This document shows, piece after piece, positions 1 through 62,439 of a DNA stretch of 64,000 nucleotides. The notes beneath the pieces were generated by a model. It ran no database searches. It was given only the letters and a program-made list of their open reading frames with translations, and was not told where the DNA came from. The first letter of the stretch is position 1. Every line of letters begins with the position of its first letter. This DNA is from Chiloscyllium plagiosum (lineage: Eukaryota): positions 19,244,300-19,308,299 of the forward strand of contig NC_057751.1 in NCBI RefSeq assembly GCF_004010195.1, read 5' to 3'. The position numbers and the translations under genes were made by a program.

Positions 1-573
1 ATTTTGTTTCCTAGTTGTGGGGTCGGGTCTAGCGCCACCTGTTGGTAGGTGTTGGTGTCTGCGAGTAGTACATTGGCTTTCTCTATGTAGTCCCTTCTGT
101 TCAGGATGACTGTGAGCCAACCTTTGTCTGCAGGTAATATAACGATGTTTTTGTCTTTTTTGAGGTTTTCTAAGGCTTTCTTTTCTTGTGTGTTCAGTTT
201 GTTTTCTTCCCTTTTTCGGCTCAGAGTAGGTGCAACTGTCTGTCTGATCGTTTGTTGTGTTTCTTCCATGAGATTGTTGTCCTTCAATGTGGTTTCTAAT
301 GCCGCTAGGAAATCCTTTTTGTCAGCATCTCGGTAATTGAAATTTAATCCTTTGACTAGTACCGCTTCTTCTGTGTCTGATAGGGTCCGGCCTGATAAGT
401 TCTTTATCCATGCCCCTGTGTTATCGGTTTTGTCTTTTTTTGTGAGTTTGTCCAGTTTTTTCTTCAGGTCCCGATTTTTCTTTATCTGTGTTTGTCGTTG
501 TTTGGTGTTTATGGCTCGTTCTACTGAGCCTACACCCTAAACCTCAACCTGAGCTACAAACCTTCACAAACCT
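1..573 (-). mobile_element. Penelope-like retroelement fragment (N-terminal part of RT ORF, running off window start) with inverted terminal piece
   Basis: Minus strand reads open: ...WIKNLSGRTLSDTEEAVLVKGLNFNY...ALENLKKDKNIVILPADKGWLTVILNRRDYIEKANVLLAD. The KGLNF and ADKG motifs are typical of Penelope ORFs. The + strand tail ACCTGAGCTACAAACCTTCACAAACCTT (549-573) resembles the tails of the Penelope copies at 38986-39020 and 61645-61679. Confidence 0.85.
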
Positions 574-690
574 TTTGCCCGGAACGCCGATTTTTTTTTT
601 TTTTCCCTGCTCCTCGGATGCTGTCTGACCTGCTGTGCTTTTCCAGCACCATTGTAATCTAGACTCTGATTTCCAGCATCTGCAGTCCTT
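574..690 (+). mobile_element. Short terminal fragment of a second Penelope-like family
   Basis: CCTGCTCCTCGGATGCTG..TGACCTGCTGTGCTTTTCCAGCA..ACTCTGATTTCCAGCATCTGCAGTCC recurs at 14947-15035 and 35672-35755, and at the ends of the RT-bearing copy at 56235-57507. Confidence 0.7.
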
Positions 691-719
691 GTTTTTACTT
701 GGGTATATGAATAGGAAGG

Positions 720-2239
720 TGTCAAAGTTCATATTTGACACGGCCCAGGGAATCCCTCGTGGACTCAGACCTGTAAGCCTCTCTTGGTTCGTCCCGGAGA
801 TCGGACTGTTTGGTCGTCTGGAATAAAAATCTCTTTTGTTTAATTTTAGTCTTTCCCTTTATTTACCAATAGCATCACTGTTACAACATAACACTGATAC
901 GTATAGGCTAAGCTAACTAGGTTCTAATAACCTAGGAGAGTAAGGCACCAGGTCTTCAAGAGCCCTCGCAGGCTACTCTCTCCTGTCACAAACAGGCTAC
1001 CTCTACACAAAAAGTTTACAAAAACACTGCATGATCTTAATTAGGCAGACAACATTGGAAAGGCAGTCATTCATAAGAAAGAGAAGTTTATTGACCGGTC
1101 TGTGTGTGCTTAGCTGATCACTCCTATAGGGCCTTAGCCATCTATCAGGTGGTAGAAACAAATTCAGTTGAGTCAGGTGTCTGTTGGCGAGGTAAGTCCC
1201 TATCGTAAAGAAGTACTAGTCTGAACTAATTGGGAGAGGTCATAAGGTAACCTTGCACAGCTTGTATGTCTGAGATTGTTGTCTTACAAAATGGCTTCTT
1301 AGCAAGGATGGCAAACTTTGACCATAAAATGGCTTCCTGACAGATTTTGTCAGAATCTCTTCAATGTTAGGTTTAGAATAATTTTTAAGCTAGGAGCAGA
1401 CTCCTGCTTTTTATCTTAAGCACAGAATCATTCTGTATCTGAGGCTGAAATGTTACCATAAGGTTGTATTTTCAATGATTCATTAGTCTTGAATGAAACA
1501 TGCTTTCATTTCAGGGTTGTGATTCAAATAAGACATAACATCTGACTAGTTAGAATTGACAGTGGTGCAGTCATGGTCTGTAAGAACAGCAAGTAAGTTA
1601 AAGCTTCATCAATATTACCTTTTACAGAGTTTACATTTCATAATCAGCGGTGGCTACTCAAAATCATCATAAAGTCCCAAAATGCAATTGAATTCAATCC
1701 ATAGCAAGTAAGCACAAAGAGTTAATTTTCTACTGGCTTCGGCAATCTCAGCACTAAAATGGTCTGTCACTCTCGCACTCTCCCTTTTGAACTCTCAAGT
1801 CAGGGACTTGGAACAGAAAAGATGTTTTTCCCTCTGTCCCTGCCTAGCTTGCAAGGGTAATAAGAATCCATTATAATAGTACCTGACCATTAATTACAAG
1901 GCTTTTGATGATACAGAGTTTCGTTTTGAGGTCAGAATCAAACACTGTCATTAATTTCACAAGGGAGTAGCCGTGAGTGTTATCACTTGGTGTCCCATTT
2001 ACACAAATTCACTGATGTGAAGGCAAATGTTCTTAATTGCCTTAGAGCATGCCGTTATCACTTGATGAGAACAGATGTTTTTATCTTCTGCATAACATGG
2101 GTTCCCCTTTTTTGTGGCCTGAGCTGCCCTGCCTGTCAGCTTATTTTCTTGTGTGCAGTAAATGTGTTCTATAATTCAACATTACATTACATTTAGTCTG
2201 AATGTTTAAGGACAAGTTTTAAGGCGATAGACGTTCTCA
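720..2239. mobile_element. Probable solo LTR (~1.5 kb) inserted into a CR1 3' tail
   Basis: Starts TG (720) and ends CA (2239), flanked by AAGG / AAAG. It splits the CR1 tail GGGTATATGAATAGGAAGG | ATTTAGAGGGATATGGG, which is contiguous in the copy at 12825-12860 (minus strand). Confidence 0.65.
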
Positions 2240-2472
2240 AAAGATTTAGAGGGATATGGGTCAAGTGCTGGCTAATGGGACTAGATTCATTTAGGATATC
2301 TGGTCGGCGTGGAGGAGTTAGACTGAAGGATCCATTTCTGTGCTTTACATCTCTATGATTCTATGTTGTCCTTCATAATTAAAGGATTTGAATACAGGAA
2401 TAGGGATGTCTTGCTGCAATCATACAAGAGTTTGGTGGACCAAACTTGGAGAATAGTGTGCAGTTTTGGTCT
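2240..2472 (+). mobile_element. CR1 LINE fragments (3' tail plus ORF2 C-terminal piece)
   Basis: The tail matches other CR1 3' ends in the window. 2363-2472 encodes LSFIIKGFEYRNRDVLLQSYKSLV, a CR1 ORF2 C-terminal motif. Confidence 0.75.
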
Positions 2473-2476
2473 CTTT

Positions 2477-2780
2477 ATAGAACTCATACTGTGCAGAAAA
2501 TGGCCAGTCGGCCCATCAAGTCTGCATCATCCCACTCAGGCCCACCCACCAACACCCTAACCCCATAACCTGCATTTCCCATTGACTAATCCACCTAACC
2601 TGCACATCCCTGGGCACTACGGGGACAATTTAGCACGGCCAATACAGGACTAATCCACCTAACCTACACATCCCTGGGCACTATGGGACAATTTAGCACG
2701 GCCAATTCCACCCTAATCTGCACATCCCTGGGCACTATGGGACAATTTAGCACGGCCAATCCCACCCTAACCTGCACATC
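2477..2780 (-). mobile_element. HE1/V-SINE 3' fragment with internal tandem duplication of a ~52-65 bp unit
   Basis: The unit CTAACCTGCACATCCCTGGGCACTATGGGACAATTTAGCACGGCCAAT occurs three times plus a partial copy. The same motif is in the SINE at 58476-58793. Confidence 0.7.
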
Positions 2781-2931
2781 ACTCACACTCACACTCACAC
2801 TCACACTCACACTCACACTCACACTCACACTCACACTCACACTCACACTCACACTCACACTCACACTCACACTCACACTCACACTCACACTCACACTCAC
2901 ACTCACACTCACACTCACACTCACACTCACA
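2780..2931. repeat. (CACACT)n hexamer microsatellite
   Basis: Perfect run of ~25 units; it produces the spurious VSVS/LTLT ORFs. Confidence 0.98.
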
Positions 2932-3102
2932 CCTTTCAAGAGCACTCCACCGTTACACGACTGCCGGACTCGCTCTGTTCACAGGTTCAGATAACGGCCG
3001 GCAGTGAAGTCCCTTGCGGGGCACTGGGAGACTTTTACACGAGAGGTAAAAGAGTAAAGATACTCACCCAGTGCCGTCGCAGGGATCCAGCAGCCATCAT
3101 TA

Positions 3103-3120
3103 ACCAGGACGAAGCCCCCA
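3103..3120 (-). promoter_or_regulatory. Primer binding site, tRNA-Pro-like
   Basis: Minus strand TGGGGGCTTCGTCC begins 2 nt after the LTR-terminal CA. Canonical PBS-Pro is TGGGGGCTCGTCCGGGAT, so there is one extra T and a diverged 3' end. A G|GTGAGT splice donor follows at ~3062-3068. Confidence 0.75.
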
Positions 3121-3122
3121 AT

Positions 3123-3847
3123 TGTTAGCGCGGATGAAATGATATCAGTCCAAGCCCAGAGTGCGGTTCAACAATCAGTAACGTTTATTGTTACAGTAGC
3201 GCCGGCGGAGACCAACCGAGGTCCGAATCTCGGCTGCTCTGCTGTTCCTGCGCGCTGCTACATATTATTTACCTTTAGTTGCCAGGATGTGTGGAATTTG
3301 AGGATGAATGGGATGATAGTTCCCCATCATCACTGGAGTAGGTGCAAATATGTTTCCTACCATCCCAGGAGAGTTGCAGGGCACGCACAATATGGTGCTA
3401 ATTGGTTTATGTAAAACGGGTCCGGGTATTATCTGCTTGTCTCTCTCTGTGAGGGCAGGGGCTAGCACCCCCCTTTGTTCCCTTGGGGTGTTGGTGTGTA
3501 TTGGTCTGTCCGTTCCTGTCTGGTGGATGCCTGTCCTTTGTGTCAGGTTGGTTCCGTATCGATGGGTATGGGTGTGTTTCAGTCAGTCTCTTGATGTGAT
3601 TAGGAAATGGGTTTCCATATTAATTAATTCCTGAGTTTTGGTCTGAGTCATGGGTAGTGTTGGTCTAGTGTGGATTTGATGTGTCCTCTGTCTCCCATCT
3701 CCCGGTCACGTGGGCGGACCGACAGCTGCTGAGCTCTGTGGGTTTAAAGCTGCGACTGCTGTTTAAAACACAAAATGAATTCTTATAGTTTCCTGATGTA
3801 GGCATAGTCCCGTGGCAAAAGCATGGCGGCTCTGATGCCCGCTTGCA
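3123..3847 (-). repeat. ERV LTR (725 bp, TG...CA), env-proximal copy
   Basis: Minus strand starts TGCAAGCG at 3847 right after the polypurine tract AAAGGGGGGAC (3848-3858). AATAAA is at 3184-3189 (minus). It ends ...GCTAACA at 3123. Confidence 0.88.
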
Positions 3848-4028
3848 GTCCCCCCTTTCGGCAAGGGGTTGGACAGGTCCACGCCCCCGATGCCGATATT
3901 TTAAAAGTCGGTTCCTCGCCCGGGTACATTCCGCCGGCCGTCATGCTGCAGTCATGGGGCCTTTGGATAGTCCCGGGAGATGGTCACATTAACTCGAGCC
4001 CTGTGAGCTCACGGTGCCTGATTGCCCG

Positions 4029-6357
4029 CTAGGAGTCGATGGCGTGGAGCATGGTCTTCCTGGCCTTTTGTTTCTTGTGCTGGCGGCATGAATGACACGC
4101 CAGCAGGAGCCAGGCCAGAGCCAGCAGTAACTGTATGCCTACAACGGTGTGCGAGATGATTCGGATCCAGGGATGTATGTTTACGTTCAGGCCCCAATCC
4201 CACACCCTCTGCGCCCACCCCTGGGACTGCAGAGCTGTGTCTGTGTCCTCCTCTAGGTCCTTTACATGCAACTGCAACTGGTGATACAGTTTCACTGAGT
4301 GTCCTACGCGGGTCCTAAGCTCCCGTAAGACCTCAGCCAAATGTGGGATGGGGGCTTGTTCGGGCTCCTGAAATTCAGGGACACCCTCAGGGAATATATC
4401 AGCAGTTTGTCTGGACTCGGGGTTCCGTCGTCGGACCTCTGAGATGTGAACTTGCCCGACCGTGACTGGGCGCCTGGGGGCGAAGCAGAACTCGTGCTGG
4501 GGAATCGGGCACTGCAGTCCATTATACCAAAATGAGGTTTCAAGAGTGGAGACACAATATCGTCCCTCCCCCCAGCATACCCCGCCCTAGTGAAGTGGGG
4601 GCCCNNNNNNNNNNNNNNNNNNNNNNNNNNNNNNNNNNNNNNNNNNNNNNNNNNNNNNNNNNNNNNNNNNNNNNNNNNNNNNNNNNNNNNNNNNNNNNNN
4701 NNNNNNNNNNNNNNNNNNNNNNNNNNNNNNNNNNNNNNNNNNNNNNNNNNNNNNNNNNNNNNNNNNNNNNNNNNNNNNNNNNNNNNNNNNNNNNNNNNNN
4801 NNNNNNNNNNNNNNNNNNNNNNNNNNNNNNNNNNNNNNNNNNNNNNNNNNNNNNNNNNNNNNNNNNNNNNNNNNNNNNNNNNNNNNNNNNNNNNNNNNNN
4901 NNNNNNNNNNNNNNNNNNNNNNNNNNNNNNNNNNNNNNNNNNNNNNNNNNNNNNNNNNNNNNNNNNNNNNNNNNNNNNNNNNNNNNNNNNNNNNNNNNNN
5001 NNNNNNNNNNNNNNNNNNNNNNNNNNNNNNNNNNNNNNNNNNNNNNNNNNNNNNNNNNNNNNNNNNNNNNNNNNNNNNNNNNNNNNNNNNNNNNNNNNNN
5101 NNNNNNNNNNNNNNNNNNNNNNNNNNNNNNNNNNNNNNNNNNNNNNNNNNNNNNNNNNNNNNNNNNNNNNNNNNNNNNNNNNNNNNNNNNNNNNNNNNNN
5201 NNNNNNNNNNNNNNNNNNNNNNNNNNNNNNNNNNNNNNNNNNNNNNNNNNNNNNNNNNNNNNNNNNNNNNNNNNNNNNNNNNGCGATTGAGGCCAGTTTG
5301 GCACTGTCGATCCAGTCGGGCAACTCCCCCCTTTGGACCTGGTCAAGATTATGCTGGATCTGGGCTACCATCCACAGGCCATACGCATGGCCCGGTTTAT
5401 AAGGCGGTTAATGGTGTGGGCGTGTGTCTCCAGGACTGCAATGCCGTCGAGCTGGGTGTGTGCTCCCTCTTCCCCCAGGCGTGCCTGGTCTGCCTGATTT
5501 GTGAGAGACCTCTGTAGCAGGTCCCTCATTACCCCTTTTAGTTGCTCGACCTTTTCGTTAAGGCCCTGGATGTCTAGGGAGTTTACTACGGATGTCCCCG
5601 TGTTGAGTCCTGTGAGAGCATCATTGACTATGTCCCGTCTGTGTCGTTGTGTGTGTGTTATGTCTGTCGGTCCGGTAGTGGGTTGCCCCCAATGCCGTCT
5701 ATGGCCCCCTCTATAATCTCCTTCCCCATCATGGTGTATAGGTTGCGTACCTGTGCTGTGCAATAGTCCAGTACCCGGATGCCCGATATATTGACCAGCA
5801 CAGGTACGACCTCGTGTCGGACGTTGTCATAAAGGGCCTCTCCCTCATCCCACAATACCAGTCCCCCCGCGGGCACCGGTCCCAGAGAGGGGCACGGCAA
5901 TATCTCCGGAGTCGTGGTCGGGGCGGGTGCAAAGCACAAATGCAAAGAGACTACCGCGGCATCAGTAGGCTCGTAATATCCACAAACAGACAGATCCCGT
6001 ACAGTAAAGGCATCAAAGGCCGGGGCAGAGGAGAGGTCCTCTGGCATGGCACACATTGTCCCGAACATGCAACCCCCCCAAGTCCATCGCCTCAGTACGC
6101 CGGAGGCAGGTCGGCCGCGGGTCACGCTCCAACGTGCAGAATAAACAGAGTGTCTGTACGCCCGGGAGAACTTCCAGCCAGGCGATGTAGAACGCGTCGA
6201 TCAAATCGGGCTTGTCCCTTGCAGGAATACAGATGGCGTCGGACGCGTTGAAGACAACACCGTGGCGGTAGAAGTTGTCATATATTTCGGGGAAGGAAGG
6301 CACTAGTCGTAGGGCGAAGAGGAGAGCAGGGAGGAGAGCGGTGCACCGGTGAAGCAT
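4029..6357 (-). pseudogene. env: ERV envelope glycoprotein, frameshifted and partly in an N gap
   Basis: Signal peptide MLHRCTALLPALLFALRLVPS and a Cys-containing SU. Furin-type RHRR at 5635-5646 is followed by DIVNDALTGLNTGTSVVNSLDI and the heptad-like QGLNEKVEQLKGVMRDLLQ. Further downstream: MVAQIQHNLDQVQRGELPDW, the Trp-rich GWAQRVWDW, a TM helix IISHTVVGIQLLLALAWLLLAC and a basic tail. Several frame changes are visible. Confidence 0.85.
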
Positions 6358-6479
6358 GATCTGTGGGAAGAGAGGGAGAGAGGCACCCTTACCAAGGGTG
6401 TAGGGTTAGTGTGTGTAGGAGCAGGTCTCCCTGGAGCCGGTCCACCCGTTGCACTGTAAGGAGAAAGAGGGGCGGTTAG

Positions 6480-7125
6480 AGTCAAGTCAAGGGGGAGTGT
6501 CTGTCCAGTCGGGGCTTGAGTAGGGCTTAAGCTGGTACCAGTGTTTCCACCTGCCCTTTCCCTTTATGTCGACACAGGCGCATGTGTCGCTGGTGAGGAT
6601 TTCGTGCGGTCCCAGCCACCGGCGGGGGTGAAGCCGGGTCGGTCAGGGGCGGGCCTGACCAGGACTTTGTCCCCAACGCCGGGAAGGGGTTGGGTGGGCA
6701 GATGCGGCTGCAGTTTTGCCTGGTCCCTAATGTCCTGCTGGTCGCGCGCAGTTTGTCTAAGGGACCGCAGCTGCGCATCCAGCTGCCTGATATAGCGCGT
6801 CATCCTGTCCCTCAGGGGGGCCATGTCTTCCCCCCCGACCATGACGTTCTCTGGTAGTCGCATGGCCCTCCCCGTCATGAGCTCGAAGGGAGCGGCCTGG
6901 GGTGGCCCTTGAGCGCATCAGTATGCAGGGCAGAACATCCACCCAGCCCTGCCCTGTTTCGGCGATCGCCTTCGCGATCGCAGCTTTGAGGGTCCGGTTC
7001 ATGCACTCGACCATCCCGGAGCTCTGGGGATGGAATGGGACGTGGAAGCGCTGTCTGATGCCTAGAAGGAGGCAGGCCAGTTTCATTGCGCGTCCGGTGA
7101 AGTGCGTGCCCTGGTCTGAGTCTAA
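6480..7125 (-). pseudogene. pol: Retroviral integrase, C-terminal two thirds (frameshifted)
   Basis: DSDQGTHFTG...FHVPFHPQSSGMVECMNRTLK carries the second D and the E of DDE. Also WVDVLPCILM..RATP, PFELMTGRAM, GDKVLVR, GPHEI (GPY/F-like) and WKHWYQLKPY. Confidence 0.9.
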
Positions 7126-9822
7126 ACATTTTGAATTGACCTGCAGGGTCTAAGGCTTTTTACAAAGTGAAAGGTTAGGGTTTCTTCTACTCTTTGTGTG
7201 AAGAAGTGATTCCTGATATTATCCTTTTGCTGTCTGGCTTTAATTTTACACAGTCTTGCTCTTGATTCTCCTGCCAGAGGAAATCGTTTCTCTCTGTCTG
7301 CCCTTTCAACTCTTTTTAGTTATCTTAAACAATCCAATTAAATCACCCTTCATCACCTTCATTGATTAGACCCAAATACTCCATACAATGTGGAATTCAT
7401 GCTCAAATTCTAATTGTTCTGTCATATTTTTGCTAATAGTCTTCCTTTCCAGCAGCTTCCTGGACATTATCTCCCCAGCTCAAGTTAAGCAAATCTTGCA
7501 GCCTCATTTTAAATCCTTAAATTTGGCCTTTCCAACTTGAGCATGAGGTTCCATCTGCATTCCCGCAAGGTAAACATAGAAATTTGTTCTTGTTAACTTT
7601 GCTATTTGGCTTCCTCTTCGATTCTGGCAGATTAACTTGTGAACTTCTGGGATATCTTTTGGAAAGCCAATAACCCAGTCCTACAAATGGCTTTTTGTTG
7701 ACCCCTCCTCTGTCAAGGTCAATCTCCATTGCAGCATGAATCATATGAGTCTTCTTGTATCCAGCCAGATAGAAATGTTCATTCGCTAACCTTTTAGTTT
7801 CCAACTATTGGACTCCAGTAACTAATTTAAAGCAAAAAAAAAAATTATAGTCTGGCATTCTCAATACCTGAGACTTGGAGACTAACAGTCTATTCACTTT
7901 TAACACAATCTACCATTGTCTACAAGTGTGAATACCTTCCCACGAAAACAACCAAGGGACACCTTTAATCTTAACAATCCAGTTTGCTGTCTGTGAAACT
8001 CAAATCTGCCTCTGTTACCCTAATTTACTGACAGCCCCAAAATGTAACCATCTTGTAAAAATAATTGTTTGGTAGTACTGAACTTAAAACATGTCTAAAA
8101 AGAGAAATGAGGTTGAAGCTTTTTGGCTTGCACTCATCAGGATTGAAATGAAGCATAGCCTTTAAGTTTCTTATTCTTATCGGCGATAAAACGGGTAAGG
8201 GAACCCTCTGGCCCCCAATCTAGGTCTTCGGCCGTGCTCCCACCCATGGTAGGGGCACAGCGGGTGTAACTTAACAGAAGCTAATTTAAAGTAAAGCTAG
8301 CAGGCGTGCTAAGAGATGCTGGCACTGGCTTATTCATCTCCCAGTCGGGGAGCCCACTCCGTGTAAGTCGAACCCTAGCCCCGCGGGTCAACCTGGGTAG
8401 GGGGTGGGGGGATAGTTACAGATGGGGCACGTGTCGATTCCTGAGCACGCAACCCGAGTTTCCATGAGTGTCTCTCTCTCACCGCCTGACATTCAGCGGC
8501 TGTGTGTACCCCACAAACACTGGGCGTGAACCAGGGGCCTGAGTGCAAGGGGGGGGTGGCGTGAAGTCAGACCTAACTGCGCCTGATCCTACAGAGGCCA
8601 ATACCTCGGGACTGCGAGGTCAATGGGCAGAGCGTATAACTGCCGGTTGGCCCAAAGGCCCCGCGTCTCGGGCTGGTTTGGAGGACTTCCCTTCTTGTAG
8701 CGCGCGCGCGCGTGTAGACCTCCCAGCCTCTACTGCGTACGCAAGGAAGGCGCTAAAACCGGGCTCCACGTACAATGGGGTCCCCTAACCTCCACTGCAG
8801 AGGTCAACCAGGAAGGCTTGTTTGGTCGGTTTTTATACGGGGAGGTCAATCTGTCGGGGTCTCGTACCTAAAGTCGTTGGTCCAAGGATAGTCCGTCAGT
8901 CACAGTAGCACATTGACAATAAACGACAATAATAATAATCAAGCACACTTTTTTACTNNNNNNNNNNNNNNNNNNNNNNNNNNNNNNNNNNNNNNNNNNN
9001 NNNNNNNNNNNNNNNNNNNNNNNNNNNNNNNNNNNNNNNNNNNNNNNNNNNNNNNNNNNNNNNNNNNNNNNNNNNNNNNNNNNNNNNNNNNNNNNNNNNN
9101 NNNNNNNNNNNNNNNNNNNNNNNNNNNNNNNNNNNNNNNNNNNNNNNNNNNNNNNNNNNNNNNNNNNNNNNNNNNNNNNNNNNNNNNNNNNNNNNNNNNN
9201 NNNNNNNNNNNNNNNNNNNNNNNNNNNNNNNNNNNNNNNNNNNNNNNNNNNNNNNNNNNNNNNNNNNNNNNNNNNNNNNNNNNNNNNNNNNNNNNNNNNN
9301 NNNNNNNNNNNNNNNNNNNNNNNNNNNNNNNNNNNNNNNNNNNNNNNNNNNNNNNNNNNNNNNNNNNNNNNNNNNNNNNNNNNNNNNNNNNNNNNNNNNN
9401 NNNNNNNNNNNNNNNNNNNNNNNNNNNNNNNNNNNNNNNNNNNNNNNNNNNNNNNNNNNNNNNNNNNNNNNNNNNNNNNNNNNNNNNNNNNNNNNNNNNN
9501 NNNNNNNNNNNNNNNNNNNNNNNNNNNNNNNNNNNNNNNNNNNNNNNNNNNNNNNNNNNNNNNNNNNNNNNNNNNNNNNNNNNNNNNNNNNNNNNNNNNN
9601 NNNNNNNNNNNNNNNNNNNNNNNNNNNNNNNNNNNNNNNNNNNNNNNNNNNNNNNNNNNNNNNNNNNNNNNNNNNNNNNNNNNNNNNNNNNNNNNNNNNN
9701 NNNNNNNNNNNNNNNNNNNNNNNNNNNNNNNNNNNNNNNNNNNNNNNNNNNNNNNNNNNNNNNNNNNNNNNNNNNNNNNNNNNNNNNNNNNNNNNNNNNN
9801 NNNNNNNNNNNNNNNNNNNNNN

Positions 9823-10322
9823 ATGTTTCCTGCCATCCCAGGAGAGTTGCAGGGCACGCACAATAGGGTGCTAATTGGTTTATGTAAAACGGGTCCGGGT
9901 ATTATCTGCTTGTCTCTCTCTGTGAGGGCAGGGGCTAGCACCCCCCTTTGTTCCCTTGGGGTGTTGGTGTGTATTGGTCTGTCCGTTCCTGTCTGGTGGA
10001 TGCCTGTCCTTTGTGTCAGGTTGGTTCCGTATCGATGGGTATGGGTGTGTTTCAGTCAGTCTCTTGATGTGATTAGGAAATGGGTTTCCATATTAATTAA
10101 TTCCTGAGTTTTGGACTATGAGTCATGGGTAGTGTTGGTCTAGTGTGGATTTGATGTGTCCTCTGTCTCCTATCTCCCAGTCACGTGGGCGGACCGACAG
10201 CTGCTGAGCTCTGTGGGTTTAAAGCTGCGACTGCTGTTTAAAACACAAAATGAATTCTTGTAGTTTCCTGATGTAGGCATAGTCCCGTGGCAAAAGCATG
10301 GCGGCTCTGATGCCCGCTTGCA
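9823..10322 (-). repeat. ERV 5' LTR (remainder in N gap)
   Basis: Matches 3349-3847 with about 6 substitutions and one 2-nt indel by eye. Identity stops at ...GCTTGCA(G). Confidence 0.92.
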
Positions 10323-10500
10323 GGGTCAAAACATTGAATCTTTTCAAGAAGCAGTTAGATATAATTCTTAGGGGCTAAAGGGATCCAAGAGGTTGGGACA
10401 AAAGCAGGAAAAGGATACTGAGTTTGATAATCAGCCATGATTGTGGTGGGGCAGTTTCAACGGATCAAATGGCCTACTCCTATTTTTTATGTTTCTATAG
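10323..10500 (+). mobile_element. CR1 3' tail flanking the ERV
   Basis: TTCAAGAAGCAGTTAGATATA..CTTAGGGGCTAAAGGGATC..TCAGCCATGAT..AAATGGCCTACTCC..TTCTAT is a CR1-type 3' end. Confidence 0.65.
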
Positions 10501-12719
10501 CAGGGAGTTCCAGAAGATTTACCTAGCAACAGTGAAGGAATGGTGATCGAGTCTCAATTTAGGGTAGTGTGTGGCTTTGAGGGGAACTTGTAGGTGTTGT
10601 TGTTTGTGTGTGTCTGTCACCCTTGCCCTTCTTAGTGAATGGAGATTGTTGGTTTGGTAGGTTCTGTTGGAGGAGCCTTGTTGAGTTATTATAGTGCATC
10701 TTGTAGATGGTACACACTGTTGTTATTGAGTATCAGTGGTGGGAATGAACGTTTATGTTGGTGATTGGAGTGATGATCAAGCAGTCCAGTCTTTGATTGG
10801 GTTAGTATAATCTATGAATTTAACCAATTTACATTCTGAATTCAGTTTGTGTAACTTGTTTCTGTCTTCTCTTCCACACCACCCTGCCCTTAGTTTATTA
10901 ATAAACAGCTCCGACAGGATTCCATTTATTCAAATGTTGCTTAACTGTATATTTAAGTCTTGATGTCAGATCTGTTTTGTAAAAGCAAATTGTCCTTTGG
11001 GTGTGAGTCACACTCGTGAATAAAGTTTCAACTTTGATCTCCAGCATCTGCAGACCTCACTTTCTCCTACTTATTAACTCTCACCATTATCCCAAAGGCA
11101 TTGAAAGTCAAGTGCATAGTGAGGAACTGGAGTCCTGGTACAGTCTGGACTGTAGCGGTGATGGATTTTCGTGCCCAAAAAATGCTAGAGAGCCAGCTTT
11201 TTTTTTTGATAGTTTGATATTTTTGTGGTCGTCATTTCTGGTGCTAAACTGGTAGAAAGAATGCAGAGAGGAAATATAAAATAAAGGGGACAATTCTTAA
11301 GAGGAGGAAGATCAGAGAAATCTGATTGCTTATGTACATCCTTGAAGGTGGCAAGATCCGTTCCGAGCATGGTTAACAAATTGTCAGCGATAAGGAACTT
11401 CAATTACGTAGACAGCTGGGAGAAGTTGGGATTGTTTTCCTTTTGAGAAGCAAAAGTTGAGACAAGATTTGTGTTGGAAATACTCAAGGCCAGAGAGGTT
11501 TGGACAGAAAGGGACACGTTTAAGCTATTTAGTAAAATAAAGAAAGGAGACGTAATGAAAAGCATTTTCACGCAGATAGTGCTTAAGATCTGGAATGCCC
11601 AAGACTCTGGTGGATCCAGGTTCAATCGGAGTATTCGTGAGAAAATTTTATTGTTATCTGAAAAAGAAAAATGTGCAGGGTTATGGGGACAGGGCAGTGG
11701 TATGCTCCTTCAGGAACCCACCAATGAGCTGAATAGCTGTAACTATTTTGTGTGTCTGTGAAATTCTGTGATCATTGAATTCAATTTTGCAATTTGCTGT
11801 AGTGCAATTTGAACTTGAATTGTGATTTTACACATTAAACCTTATACCCCTCTCAACTGTGACTCATTTCTTAAAGCTTCTAGTATCAAAAGCAAGTACA
11901 GTTTTCAGAAAGCAACATACAGCATCACAGCTTGATATTGTTGAGATTTAACATGCTATAGTGCTTAAAAACACTTCAAAAACATTATTTGTTGTTTTGA
12001 TGGGTATACTTCATATTCCGTGAGGTAGAAAGTCTTAGAAGCTCTTCCACTTTCTGTTGTTTCCTTCTGGCTTTCATTTGTCTGACAGTCCAAGACACAA
12101 TGGGAAGAGAGGAGGCGGTGGAAAAAGACAAAGTCAGGGGCTGGGGTCCAAGCTAACATTTCCAGTTCTGTAAAAGACTGCTTCCCTTCACTTTTTCCTC
12201 CCACTCTTCTTAAGGCCTCCTTGCTGGAATACAGTTAATCAGGCAGAAGTACAGATAGCAATAATCCTGTTGTCACTCATTTAAGTGACAATTCTTTATA
12301 TGTACTATCCAATAAAGTTAAAGATGGGGGACGCAAAAGTATCATAATTGGACATACAACTGGAATATCACTGGTATTCCATTATGGTTTCTCACCCGAA
12401 CCACCTTTGGATCTCTTCAGTAAAAATACTGAAATAGCAGCTCATGCCAATCAAAAAAAAACTCTCTGGGAAGTGTTAGTAGCTTGCAGTAGTCCACCTT
12501 TTGTAGCTTGGGACTAATACCTCTCTTCAGTTGTGGAGGGACAGAAAAACAGCCAGTTAGTCAGACAGAAGCTTGCATTTATTTATACAGTGCCTTTCAT
12601 GATATCAGGATGGCCTAATCATACAATAGTTTTAGAAGTGTTGGTTACTGTTGCAATGTAGGAAATGCAGCAGTCAATTTGCATGTAGCAAATAGCTCTC
12701 GCAAATAGCAATATGATAA

Positions 12720-12950
12720 TAGAGTCATGGAGATATACAGCACGGAAACAGACCCTTCGGTCCAACCCGTCCATGCCGACCAGATATCCCAACCCAATCT
12801 AGTCCCGCCTGCCAGCACCTGGCACATATCCCTCCAAACCCTTCCTATTCATATACCCATCCAGATGCCTTCCAAATGTTGAAATTTTACCAGACTCCAC
12901 CACTTCCTCTGGCAGCTCATTCCATACACGCACCACTCCCTGCGTGAAAT
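12720..12950 (-). mobile_element. CR1 3' end (5'-truncated)
   Basis: Near-identical to 15628-15855 and 20922-21128. Confidence 0.8.
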
Positions 12951-13102
12951 GTTTTAAGTAATGTTGTCCGAGAGGTAAGTGTTAGCCCCAGAACAATGGG
13001 GGTAAATTCCCACCTGTTAGGGTCTTAAGAGATTGTTTACAACTCTAACATGTTCTAACATCTCATCAATAGTACATCACTGGAATGACAACCTAGATTA
13101 TC

Positions 13103-13307
13103 GGATTTGGAGATGCCGGTGTTGGACTGGGGTGTACAAAGTTAAAAATCACACAACACCAGGTTATAGTCCAACAGGTTTAATTGGAAGTACACTAGCT
13201 TTCGGAGCGACGCTCCCTAACCCTAGCACCTGATGAAGGAGCGTCGCTCTGAAAGCTATTGCTTCCAATTAAACCTGTTGGACTATAACCTGGTGTTGTG
13301 TGATTTT
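13103..13307. mobile_element. Short fold-back Penelope-type element with hammerhead core
   Basis: Inverted arms at 13143-13216 and 13238-13309; 9-bp TSD TAGATTATC (13094-13102, 13308-13316); CTGATGA..GAAAGCTA at 13230-13258. Related copies at ~48475-48600, ~54060-54225 and ~62530-62675. Confidence 0.75.
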
Positions 13308-13589
13308 TAGATTATCAGAGTGAGGGTTGAACCCAGAACCAGAACTGAGTCAGACATGTGAGTGCAGTCCTGGCAAAAGGCCAGTCTTGAACTGAAAAAT
13401 AAGTGGTTGGGACTTCCAATGGCAAATATGAGTCATTTTCAACTGTAACACACTCCCTCCTCCCATGAAGACTCTAAAATAGGACAAAGGGTCAAAGAAC
13501 TGAATTGTTGACTCACTCTGTTCTCCACTGCTCCTGCCTGACCAACTGAGTCTTTGCAGCATGTTTATAAAAAAAAATTCAGATTTGAA

Positions 13590-14135
13590 TGCAAGTGCAG
13601 GGGTGTAATGTTGGAACAATAGTAGACACTGGTTAGGCCACACCGAGAATTTTGTGGACAGTCCTGGTCATCACATTACAGGAAGGACATAATCATCCGA
13701 GAGAGTACAGAGGAGACTAACGAGAATGTTGATGGGCTTGAAAATTGTAGCGATGAGGAAAGATTAGATTGGCTAAGGTTGGTCTCTTGGAGAGGGAGCT
13801 GAGGTGATTTCACAGAGGTGTACAAAATAACGAGGGGCTTGGATAAGGTGGACGAGGAAAACCCAATTCCCATAGTGGAGACGTCAGTTAGCAGGGAGCA
13901 CAGATTTAGTGATTGGGAGAAGTATTAGAACGGACATGAGGAAAACACTTTTTTTACTCAGAGGGTGTCTGTAATTTGCTGCCCTGTCTGGTGGAGACAG
14001 AAATCCTCAACTCATTTAGAAGGTACTGACTTGCACCTGCAAGATTACAGACCAGGCGCTGGATTAGAATGAACATTTAGCTGGTACAGACACAATGGAC
14101 TGAATGGCCTCCTTTCTGTGCTGTAACTTTTCTAT
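13590..14135 (+). mobile_element. Decayed CR1 ORF2 C-terminus and 3' tail
   Basis: ACTGGTTAGGCCACA..GGACAGTCCTGGTCATCACATTACAGGAAGGA..TTTACTCAGAGGGTG..GAATGGCCTCCTTTCTGTGCTGTAA. Confidence 0.7.
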
Positions 14136-14881
14136 TATATTTGTTGCACTTTCAGTGTTTTACCATTGGTTCCCTGAAGAACTGATCTGTCTTGTTCACT
14201 TCTCGACCTGAAATTTGTCTGTTGGCTCTTTGTTCATCTAGAGCATTTAACTGGACTTGAAAAACATTGTTTGGTCCCACCTTATGAGTTTTTATTAATA
14301 ATTGTGCACAACTATCTGGTTTTGGCTCAAGGAAGTTATGAGAAAAACCGATTAGTACAGCAAGTCCTCATTTAAAGTTTACCTATTTAATGTTGTTTTG
14401 CTTAAACATTAGCAAATTAATTGGGCTTGTAATCTCATTTAGTGTTGAGATTTGTTTTAATAATGTTTCCTGCATAAGCTCGTCATCGTCTTTCCCTGCT
14501 TCCTGACCTCCGGGTTGTCGTCTTTCCCTACTCCTCAACTCGTCCGTATGCCATTTCCCTTTTGTGGACTTGCGTTTCTGTCAAGAGATTCAGTCTGAAG
14601 TTGGAGCTTACAGATGTGGAAGAGCTGGTGGTTCACATGTGCTGGAACATTTGCAGGTTTTTTTAAAAAAAAATTACTTTCAAAGCTGCTCCTGTCTTGT
14701 TGCCCTTCTCCCAAACTTTATCTCACAGCGAGGGTTCAGGATTGGGAAGTAAGCAACAGCTATTCAGAAATAAGGTTCAAAAGATTGAGTCTATTGCAGG
14801 AGGATAAAGTTCAAGTGTTTATGCAGAACGATCCTGTAGCTGATGTTAAGACACTGAGACAGACAGCAGAATCTAATCAGC

Positions 14882-15044
14882 AGGTCAGGCAGCATCCGAG
14901 GAGCAGGAAAATCGATGTTTTGGGCAAAAGCCCTTCATCAGGGCTTCCTGCTCCTCGGATGCTGCCTGACCTGCTGTGATTTTTCCAGCACCACTCTAAT
15001 GTCGACTCTGATCTCCAGCATCTGCAGTCCTCACTTTTTTGCCT
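14882..15044. mobile_element. Short fold-back Penelope-like insertion with 17-bp TSD
   Basis: AGCAGAATCTAATCAGC occurs at 14865-14881 and 15045-15061. Internal inverted arms are CAGGTCAGGCAGCATCCGAGGAGCAGGAA and TTCCTGCTCCTCGGATGCTGCCTGACCTG. Confidence 0.8.
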
Positions 15045-15627
15045 AGCAGAATCTAATCAGCCTCCCTACCTCTGTATTTGCAAAACAGTAGAATTAAAAC
15101 ATACAAAGACTCTCAAAACTGATCCCGATGGTTCCTAACCAGACCTTTTGAGTAACCAATCCTGGATTTTATGAATAATTGATTCCAGACACTGGATTTG
15201 TAGCTTAAACAAAAGACTTAGCAATATATTAATAACATAGTAACTTTAGCAAAGCAAAATTAAGCAATAATCTAATGTATATGATTTAAAATCCAATAAC
15301 CTTTTGTTTTCAACCCTATTCATTCAAAAGATGGGCAAATAAACACAAATTAAAGGATAGATTTTAAACAAAATAACAAAACCATCCAGATGACTGAAGT
15401 GATTTTCCCAAAGATATATTTGTTTCTTGGTTGGTTTTCTGAAGGTGTTAATCAAGGCTACCTTTTCAGTTCACTGAGGACAATTCGATAATGCTTATAA
15501 CTTAGCTGTGGGAAGTTCAGATACTAGAAGCTGATAATGGCAGGGAATTTCCAAATCTTCATGCTGTAGATCAACAGCCAGACTCCTCCTCTTCCTCCTC
15601 AGAAATCCCCAGTTCAAAACAGTTATT

Positions 15628-16833
15628 GAGTCACAGAGATGTATAGCACAGAAACAGACCCTTCAGTCCAACTTGTCTATGCCAACCAGATATCCTAACC
15701 TAATCTAGTCCCATTTGCCAGCATTTGGCCCATTATCCCTCTAAACCCTTTCTATTCTTATACCCATCCAGATGCCTTTTTAAAATATTATAATTGTACC
15801 AACCTCCACCGCTTCCTCTGGCAGCTCATTCCATACACGCACCACCCTCTGTGTGAAAAGGTTGCCCCTTTGGTCCTTTTAAAATCTTTTCCCTCTCACC
15901 TTAAACCTATGCCCTCTAGTTCTGGACTCGCCCATCCCAGGGAAAAGACCATGTTTATTTACCCTATCTATGCCCCTCATGATTTTAAACCTCTATAAGG
16001 TCACTCCTCAGTCTCTGAAGCTCCAGGGAAAACAGCCCCAGCCTATTCAGCCTCTCTCTTTAGCTGAAACCCTCCAACCCTGGCAACATCCTTATAAATC
16101 TTTTCTGAACCCTTTCACGTTTCACAACACCATTCCGATAGAAAGGAGACCAGAATTGCGCACAATATTCCAAAAGTGGCCCAACCAATGTCCTGTACAG
16201 CCGCGACATGACTTTCCAACTCCTGTACTCAATACTCTTGACCAATAAAGGAAAGCATACCAAACGCCTTCTTCACTATCCTATCTACCTGTGACTCCAC
16301 TTTCAAGGAGCTATGAACCTGCACTCCAAGGTCTCTTTGTTCAGCAACACTCCCCAGGACCTTACCATTAAATGTATAAGTCCTGCCCTCATTTGCCTTT
16401 CCATAATGCAGCACCTCACATTTATCTAAATTAAACACCCATATGCCAAGATCCTGTTGTACTCTCAGGTAACCTTCTTTGCTGTCCACTGCAAATTTTG
16501 ATGGTATCTGCAAACTTACTAATTATGCCTCCTATGTTCACTTCCAAACCATTATATAAATAACAAAAAAACAGTGGACCCAGCACCAATCCTTGTGGCA
16601 CACCATTGGTCACAGGCCTCCAATATGAAAGGCAACCCTCCACCACCACCACCCTCTGTCTTCTACCTTTGTGCTAATTCTGAATCCAAATGGCTAGTTG
16701 TCCCGTTATTCCATGTGATCTAACCTTGCTAATCAGTCTACCATGAGGAACCTTGTCAAACGCCTTAATGAAGTCCATATAGATCACATCCACTGCTCTG
16801 TCCTCATCAATCCTCTTTGTTAATTCTTCAAAA
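15628..16833 (-). mobile_element. CR1 LINE, 3' ~1.2 kb (RT C-terminal half)
   Basis: AVDVIYMDFIKAFDKVPHGRL, VTNGVPQGLVLGPLFF, SKFAD, QRDLGVQVHSSLKV, LEYCAQFWSP; frameshifted. Confidence 0.93.
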
Positions 16834-18307
16834 GGTAACTCTGGCCCCTCCCTCTGTTTGACCATCATGTTCCCTTTCAAACTTGCTGGTACAATTTTCA
16901 GGTACTGACCTTGTAATGGCTAAACATCTGTTATCTGGTTGAATCTATTGCTTCCCCTTGAGGTGAAGAGTCTGTAGAATCCTTTGATGGTTTGAGAGGC
17001 CAGGCCTGGAAGGTAATTTCAGGTTGGTTCATGATCAAATTGGGGGGTTTCTCAGAAGAAGAGTTTTGGCTGTTGATGCTGCAACATGAAGATTTGAAAG
17101 CTTTCTTTAAAAAAAAAGACCAAGCAAACAAATCATCTTTCAGCTCTCAACTCCAAACTAAAATATATCTTAAAGAAATCAATGAGGGTTCTAACGCTTA
17201 AATATGTGGGAGTGACCCGCTGAACCAGTGCATTCCTCTAGAATATGATCCTAAAGGGTTGGCATCTGTTTAATGCCTAACATTTGCAATCTCTTTAATG
17301 TATTGATTTGTATTGAGATACAATTCTGTCGGTACTGGCAGCTTTCAGAATATTATTTAAGTAGCTATGCAATGCTATGATGCCTGATGCCATGTATCCA
17401 TTTACCTATAAGTGTCACTGACGAACTTAGCCAAAGTCAGCCAGGGCTCTGAGTCGCTAACCATTAAAGATCATGGTGTGAATATAGGCAGAAAAGTGTA
17501 TTTGATTTTTTTTTTTCACCAAAAGATTGAGACTACCATAATGGCTGAGATTGTAGTTTTCAAGTGGGTGGTACCAGTTTGCTCAAAATCCTTCCTTCGT
17601 GCAGCAAAAACAAGAAACATTCTATATCCAGAAGATCAGACAGCATCTAGCTAGGAAGCATAAGAGATGTAATTGGTTGTAAATGTGTGAAAATGGGAGG
17701 GAAGGGTTACAGTTTTTTTTTGAAGGAAGTAGCTTGGTCATGTATAACGTTTGAAGACTGTGTGGGAAATGGGGAAACAGAAAGCTCAAGGAAAATCTTG
17801 AATCCTGGTGGCTTGTTGAGTTACATACAAATTATTATTTACTTCTGAGATTTGGCTATGAATCCACTCCGGACTAATAGATGGAATTATGAAAATATCC
17901 CATGTCAAATAGTGTTGGGGTAGCCCCAAACTGATTAATTATGGACTCTATTAGTTTGTGGGAGTCATATACATACACAGCCCACAGTGATGATTGGTGT
18001 GAGGAAATAAAGCTGTGATACAAATGCTACAGGAGAGTAATCTTGAGGTCAGAGTGAAGGCACATTGTAGCGGTGAAGAAGTAGCTCTGCTTGTATCAAA
18101 CATTTGCTGTACCTTTATCTGAGTGTGCTCATTGTTATTATTAGGTGTTATTGTTCCTCAGCACAAATGTCACTTGTCCTGATCAAGCCAAAGAAAAACT
18201 TTCTCAGCCAAAAGAAGGCTTTGGGATCATGCTGCCAAGTTCTCAGTGTATTTGATTCAGTAAAGTTGATCTTTTAGCTGATAGAGATTTTCTTTTTCTC
18301 TAACAGT

Positions 18308-62439
<44,132 letters not shown>

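Follow-up and report, generated by a model that had tools for sequence, protein, structure and literature searches.

Walleye dermal sarcoma virus (WDSV) and walleye epidermal hyperplasia virus (WEHV) carry an envelope protein (Env) without the gammaretroviral hallmarks, which one study takes to have developed recently out of a gamma-type ancestor (PMC9967133). Foamy virus Env has been linked to the F proteins, with no mention of epsilonretroviruses or snakehead retrovirus (SnRV) in the available part of that work (PMC11468914). Ancestor-type class I endogenous retroviruses (ERVs) have been described from zebrafish (PMC8672886) and SnRV-like and epsilon-like ERVs from the elephant shark (PMC4422223, PMC4977317, PMC6001957), and a survey of anamniote Envs deals with the gamma type (bioRxiv 2021.11.23.469661). 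A different kind of element, recKoRV1, is a recombinant of koala retrovirus (KoRV) and PhER that is non-coding, occurs in many copies and needs helper enzymes (PMC6112702). Here we examine an ERV in a 64,000-nt stretch of the genome of the shark Chiloscyllium plagiosum (contig NC_057751.1, positions 19,244,300 to 19,308,299; hereafter the window, in whose numbering all coordinates are given). The ERV would combine known kinds, being a non-autonomous recombinant and having a WDSV-type Env on a deeper Pol lineage. In our judgement it is probably a broken, pol-less shark ERV with host-like DNA in place of most of gag-pol and a long Env, free of the CX6CC motif and homologous to that of WDSV, and it likely spread as a non-autonomous passenger. 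A literature search, in a collection with few subscription journals, found no paper on a WDSV-type Env in shark ERVs or on the chimera; the supplements of large ERV surveys may list the family by its reverse transcriptase (RT).

Layout of the element and its terminal signals

Translation and blastx place the element on the minus strand, and it reaches past the stretch that an earlier note on this DNA had assigned to it, taking in a leader, the start of gag and a host-like insert at 7123-8957. Long terminal repeats (LTRs), primer binding site (PBS), leader, gag start, insert, half of the integrase (IN), env and polypurine tract (PPT) are all present, as listed below. The read evidence comes from four of the 24 listed sequencing runs (X23, X1, X9 and X11), all from related organisms.

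2780..2932, no strand: (CACTCA)25 microsatellite linking the leader piece to host repeat DNA (TRF)
2938..3106, minus: leader piece with splice-donor-like GGGTGAGT at 3069-3062 (joint 8952 to 2938)
3107..3120, minus: tRNA-Pro-like PBS, directly after the left LTR
3123..3847, minus: complete LTR of 725 nt, TG...CA, with AATAAA at 3189-3184 (X23 loose ends)
3850..3858, minus: PPT, a purine run two bases ahead of the LTR
4029..6357, minus: env, broken (blastx against P0002, P0004 and P0005 at 40-80%; hydropathy and motif scan)
6454..6479, minus: branch point, pyrimidine tract and AG, which by their sequence pattern probably act as the env splice acceptor
6487..7122, minus: C-terminal half of IN (Pfam rve, E=5.7e-4; P0042, 66% over 73 aa)
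7123..8150, no strand: 1,028-nt host-like insert in place of most of gag and pol (composition; junctions bridged in X9)
8151..8957, minus: 5' leader, then gag from its ATG at 8247 for ~30 codons (viral-like composition; gag match)
9823..10322, minus: U3-side 500 nt of an LTR, probably the 5' LTR (TG start on the minus strand; host flank past 10322)

X23 reads whose loose ends run into diverse flanks, 89 of them at 3123 and 74 at 3847, confirm the limits of the left LTR, and the rest of the right-hand LTR falls within the 865-N gap that lies between the two (8958-9822). Aligned over 500 columns, 3350-3847 and 9823-10322 are 98.4% identical, with six substitutions and one 2-nt indel, just as the earlier note had counted; the indel varies within the family (89 of 177 reads). 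The PBS, which we take to be of the tRNA-Pro type, differs by one inserted base from the post-LTR site of six gammaretrovirus loci. The joint from 8952 to 2938, with 62 letters between, is seen in five X23 reads and one X9 contig, and since relatives have this joint, the leader piece normally sits after the 5' LTR; at this locus either the assembler has misplaced it or a truncated tandem copy begins with it. A 54-nt tandem (2590-2780, 2.4 copies) leads into the (CACTCA)25 microsatellite and is presumably akin to the tail of a shark short or long interspersed element (SINE/LINE). At the other end of the element, the leader and gag start have a GC content of 55% and an observed/expected CpG ratio of 0.75, as in the viral parts, and 8232-8164 matches the N-terminus of the Heterodontus gag-pol protein P0070 (57%, E=7e-4). 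Rfam, scanned over 1-20000, gave no match.

An envelope with a long transmembrane subunit

The env frame begins with an ATG at 6357, followed by a hydrophobic, signal-peptide-like stretch, and stops at 4029-4031. An RHRR cleavage site (5646-5635) precedes a fusion-peptide-like stretch of small residues that starts at 5634, the transmembrane (TM) part contains the segment VAQIQHNLDQVQRGELPDW, and the TM membrane helix lies at 4160-4104. The earlier note had described an integrase remnant followed by an env with a signal peptide, an RHRR site and a small-residue-rich segment after cleavage, and translation, blastx and the rve match bear this description out. The N gap at 4605-5282 holds 678 N, in line with the ~680 of that note, and corresponds to 375 nt in a spanning X9 contig and to 125 aa in P0004, so that the distance from cleavage site to helix is about 1.17 kb and not the ~1.5 kb first given. 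The env frame is broken at four places (near 6070-6130, 5610-5660, 5390 and 4570-4600), and env and IN together have at least six breaks. The Chiloscyllium protein P0026 (91%) ends in an identical out-of-frame tail near 5390, and an 86-nt duplication in the surface subunit (SU) is present in 72 X23 reads. At 4370-4398, strand-switch joints in seven X23 reads and loose ends in X1 and X9 suggest a small inversion or hairpin variant within env among family copies.

A search of all minus frames of the window's sequenced TM part, and of 11 relatives, most of which span the gap, found neither a CX6CC nor an immunosuppressive domain (ISD)-like motif; the earlier note had reported the same for the sequenced part, and its statement stands with the gap covered. 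The CX6CC scan was positive in gamma and delta controls, and the ISD pattern was run without a control. Env homologue searches yielded five of 388 candidates and then 16 representatives. As expected of a shark retrovirus, which the earlier note had proposed, every relative with a name is from a shark or ray (Mustelus, Chiloscyllium, Pristiophorus, Heterodontus, Scyliorhinus and Rhinoraja). Remoter relatives (24-40%; P0038, P0039, P0040 and P0041) occur in Scyliorhinus, Pristiophorus and Rhinoraja and point to several lineages carrying this Env type, and viral and metagenome scans for family loci found none.

Reference retroviruses were taken from IMG/VR, with WDSV as the only epsilon Env reference. 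Their gamma, delta and foamy labels are assumed by us from motifs, tree groups and genome sizes. L002 and L040 have RT text that agrees letter for letter with the entries for WDSV and SnRV in the supplement of Wang and Han. In HHalign, the shark Env alignment matched WDSV with a probability of 94.6, a score of 69.9 and E=7e-8 over 384 columns (shuffled maximum 21.7) and SnRV with a score of 28.2 and E=0.021 (shuffled maximum 24.6); matches to delta (26.9) and gamma (23.1) were limited to the membrane helix, and the match to 16 foamy Envs (22.2, E=0.18) was within the shuffle level. Smith-Waterman comparison with the TM of P0002 gave z=9.3 for WDSV (0 of 200 shuffles), 3.2 for SnRV (2 of 200) and 0.6 and 1.9 for foamy viruses, and over three relatives z was 9.3, 8.1 and 4.7 for WDSV, 2.4-3.3 for SnRV and 0.6-2.5 for foamy viruses. 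Judged by these alignments, the shark Env is homologous to WDSV Env, the best of the references tested, and the 'snakehead/spuma-type' Env of the earlier note was not supported over the whole TM.

The likeness to WDSV comprises a colinear TM, from furin site to membrane helix, at 22% identity over the 384 columns, and neither protein has a CX6CC. The shark Env differs in its short SU and short cytoplasmic tail (open reading frame (ORF) 714 vs 1,229 aa), and the shark element, with ~180 nt from env to LTR, has no space for accessory genes. The TM ectodomain measures 407 aa in an uninterrupted shark relative, 384 in WDSV, 389 in foamy viruses, 354 in SnRV, 144 in gamma and 133 in delta. The earlier note was therefore right about a long, non-gamma shark TM and about long TMs in SnRV and foamy viruses, and its view that gamma and epsilon TMs are short and carry ISD and CX6CC holds for gamma in length and CX6CC and fails for WDSV. 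Since WDSV, SnRV and foamy viruses alike have a long TM, this feature is not diagnostic of SnRV or spuma. The SnRV TM is colinear with the shark TM and shares cysteines and a helix-loop motif with it. A gamma-type Env was rejected on the absence of CX6CC/ISD and on ectodomain length (407 aa vs 144 and 133), and a foamy-type Env on the HHalign and z values above. As to the fold, a Foldseek search of a low-confidence model against BFVD had viral fusion glycoproteins in its leading rows, with torovirus spike (E=3.6e-5) and paramyxovirus F0 (2.6e-3) among the matches and TM-scores of ~0.1, and ESM features of the Env lie near the Fusion_gly and Baculo_F clusters (0.89-0.93; for Fusion_gly 0.89-0.92, with low recognition 1608); these suggest, as a lead only, an F-like fold.

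The host-like insert, its spread and its age

The insert has a GC content of 37.5% and an observed/expected CpG ratio of 0.14, a ratio that is 0.23 for the flanking host DNA and 0.61-0.79 for the viral parts. Its comparison with the rest of the window by tblastx and blastn gave no match, and the minus-strand translation of 7150-7400 is, we presume, similar to the decayed C-terminus of a CR1-type LINE. X23 depth is 23-37 over the insert, 36-58 over IN, 53-87 over env (outside the duplicated bin) and ~220 over the LTR, or roughly 40-70, 70-120, 110-190 and 340-570 copies if a 3-5 Gb genome is assumed. X1 contigs across the insert have a depth of 290-310 with 1-4% differences, and in X9 each junction is crossed by contig sequence, over 6778-7433 (51 gap letters included) and over 7838-8357. 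The chimeric junctions are common to related sharks and multicopy. Four X11 contigs carry on beyond 7122 with sequence of the usual integrase type, and in the same run the insert lies on a contig of 1,123 nt that does not extend into the gag start. Eleven X23 reads, as well as contigs of X1 and X9, lack a 95-nt stretch of the insert (7653-7749), pointing to insert sub-variants common to several organisms.

Like recKoRV1, with its LTR and leader/gag start, foreign middle, and viral 3' end and LTR (PMC6112702), the shark element retains cis signals and has foreign DNA in place of the coding middle; identical junctions in many copies are found indirectly, through X23 and X1 depth and X9 contigs. 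Unlike recKoRV1, it preserves the env region in full together with one half of IN, has a middle resembling old, low-CpG host DNA and not evidently an LTR element, is far older, belongs to another virus lineage and lacks visible target-site duplications (TSDs). A single recombination event between host DNA and a provirus, or the RNA of that provirus, would have given rise to the chimera, which would have kept the cis signals (LTRs, PBS, leader/packaging region and PPT) and been packaged, reverse transcribed and integrated in trans by a helper's proteins while env was carried along passively and decayed. Env lesions common to copies point to amplification in trans after env ceased to matter, as in recKoRV1. 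The parent virus may have been a retrovirus of fishes and sharks on a deep branch close to where epsilon and gamma (class I) begin, with a furin-cleaved class I fusogen of probably paramyxovirus-F-like build.

With the rate of 2.2e-10 per year that PMC4422223 assumes, the LTR divergence of 1.2% corresponds to 27 Myr, with a Poisson range of 10-60, and a rate of 1e-9 gives 6 Myr; such an age holds only if the LTR pair is one insertion. At the measured rate of 7e-10 per generation (PMC10587355) the divergence amounts, by our own arithmetic, to ~8.6 million generations. The two LTRs may not be a single insertion: they are separated by the 865-N gap and have no visible TSD, a PBS and leader come after the left LTR, and the 2-nt indel varies within the family. 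The earlier note had called the ERV young and its lineage possibly recently active, against which, for this copy, argue the frame breaks, some of them common to copies, together with slow shark clocks. A related Mustelus family has uninterrupted Env ORFs that are 99-100% alike, and the lineage, rather than the window copy, may have been active more recently. The window copy is dead and without evident host function.

Pol placement, alternative explanations and implications

The IN half has two frame breaks in blastx and lacks the zinc finger and first catalytic D. Pol was placed through the proxy P0042, a full Pol with protease, RT, tether, RNase H and IN that clusters with the nearest IN match; the window IN and P0042 are joined at 98/99 in the IN tree, and P0069, which clusters with a Mustelus protein, is its 77% RT neighbour. 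Trees comprised 26-49 chosen rows each, after rows in which the anchor motif was not located had been dropped (P0070 and P0099 for RT; P0044, P0071, P0102, P0105 and P0103 for IN). Deltaretroviruses were omitted as long branches from the RT-core mixture tree and the later IN and AU-tested RT trees, and one of the five trees is an earlier IN tree superseded by the later one. In RT+connection trees P0042 falls inside a fish/shark clade (support 99-100/98-99) that is sister to Anguilla, Astyanax-type, epsilon and gamma elements at 91/81 and 84/97. Identity to the window IN is 59% for Anguilla elements, 46-49% for epsilon and 43% for SnRV, whose IN groups with foamy IN at 99/97. Approximately unbiased (AU) tests on RT gave p=0.002 for Loki, represented by stand-ins that were picked by their PFGY motif and are sister to all retroviruses in the tree, 0.038 for foamy, 0.0009 for sister-to-WDSV/WEHV and 0.26 for SnRV. 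From these comparisons the Pol proxy would belong to a fish/shark lineage near the base of epsilon and gamma; the class III placement raised in the earlier note is not rejected by AU testing on the SnRV side and is not the best tree. Epsilonretrovirus proper is rejected for the proxy by the sister-to-WDSV/WEHV test, and Spumaretrovirinae are rejected by RT, with fish foamy-like ERVs outside the set. Ty3/Gypsy is excluded by the tether and RNase H of P0042 and by the RT and IN trees, and the integrase does not group with Gypsy, a grouping that would have spoken against the earlier note.

Several points weigh against a WDSV-type Env on an amplified chimera. The window's own short env pieces reach only z=1.1-2.6 with WDSV, for two of the three SnRV gives the higher score (3.1 and 3.5), and a delta TM reaches 5.1 with the C-terminal piece. 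The motif segment that the earlier note had likened to the SnRV TM does resemble it above shuffles (z=3.1, 1 of 200, vs 2.6 for WDSV), slightly favouring SnRV. Regarding an F-like fold, Pfam and PDB sequence searches with the env pieces, P0002 and alignments A3 and A5 found nothing significant, and two AlphaFold models of the natural relative P0002 have pLDDT values of 30.2 and 34.6. The window holds no RT, so that Pol is placed through a proxy whose IN is 66% identical; support for the class I side stays under the starred level, with no resolution in the RT-core mixture tree and 81/55 in the IN tree; and env and pol can recombine. Only 54 of 3243 X23 reads match at 99% or more, and the reads hence stem from relatives and not from the window's own DNA; X23 supports the insert by depth, with no listed count of junction-spanning reads, and its copy numbers depend on the assumed genome size. 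No TSD is visible at this locus.

An SnRV-like ERV of class III (clade Huo), such as CmiERV lineage I, with an SnRV-type Env would account for part of these observations, and we regard it as unlikely. The RT motifs of P0042 are akin to those that Wang and Han list for SnRV in their supplement, the shark+SnRV grouping is not rejected in AU tests (RT p=0.26, IN p=0.071), the SnRV TM is long (354 aa), free of CX6CC and colinear with cysteines in common, and such ERVs are known from the elephant shark (PMC4422223). However, none of the five trees joins the shark lineage with SnRV, SnRV IN goes with foamy IN and is less similar to the window IN than epsilon or Anguilla IN, and the whole-TM score of SnRV is barely over shuffles whereas that of WDSV far exceeds them. 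A lokiretrovirus or foamy-like ERV is a very remote candidate: a signal peptide, a basic cleavage site and a long, furin-cleaved Env are common to these groups (PMC7947760, PMC11468914), the ESM features lie near F-type clusters, and IN matches bear NYNRIN-like labels, Loki IN being related to CGIN1 (PMC7947760). Against it, P0042 RT lacks the PFGY motif of the Loki rows in the Wang and Han supplement, which together with the AU result overturns the Loki reading of these labels and speaks against the earlier note's 'lokiretrovirus-like' lineage, the Env has no detectable sequence similarity to foamy Env, and the available part of the Loki survey lists none in three Orectolobiformes genomes, with two Chiloscyllium assemblies screened (PMC7947760).

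That the chimeric layout arose in assembly, or that an ordinary provirus was rearranged just once and locally, with no amplified non-autonomous family, we consider improbable. The two N gaps, the missing TSD and the leader piece at the wrong LTR beside a microsatellite would fit this, the numerous small indels are possibly sequencing errors, and the insert may be a host repeat in its own right. Yet both junctions lie in N-free sequence and are bridged by another organism's contigs, the insert has even depth and low divergence in one related organism, and one env lesion is shared with the Chiloscyllium protein P0026. A non-autonomous chimera with a WDSV-homologous Env remains our preferred explanation.

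Elsewhere in the window, a 178-aa open frame on the minus strand (1-540) contains a PADKG motif and has no significant Pfam match; we take this motif to be that of Penelope-like reverse transcriptases. An inverted repeat at 13143-13309, with perfectly matching arms of 48 nt that are 71 nt apart, is MITE-like (miniature inverted-repeat transposable element), and 45000-48000 and 56000-57000 are GC-richer, strand-skewed stretches.

As a broader and more tentative idea, WDSV Env might be part of an old F-like family in a widespread shark/fish lineage below epsilon and gamma, with SnRV more distantly included. If so, these shark ERVs would have donated the Env of the epsilonretroviruses or else would attest an ancestral class I F-like Env, contradicting the view of a gamma-type Env in the epsilon ancestor (PMC9967133). 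WDSV Env, which has been described as of unexplained origin, gains a family of relatives spread over six or more genera of sharks and rays, and these supply diversity for modelling its fold and for testing an F-like Env as ancestral in retroviruses. The element would also represent a recKoRV-style recombinant with host DNA that was amplified in sharks.

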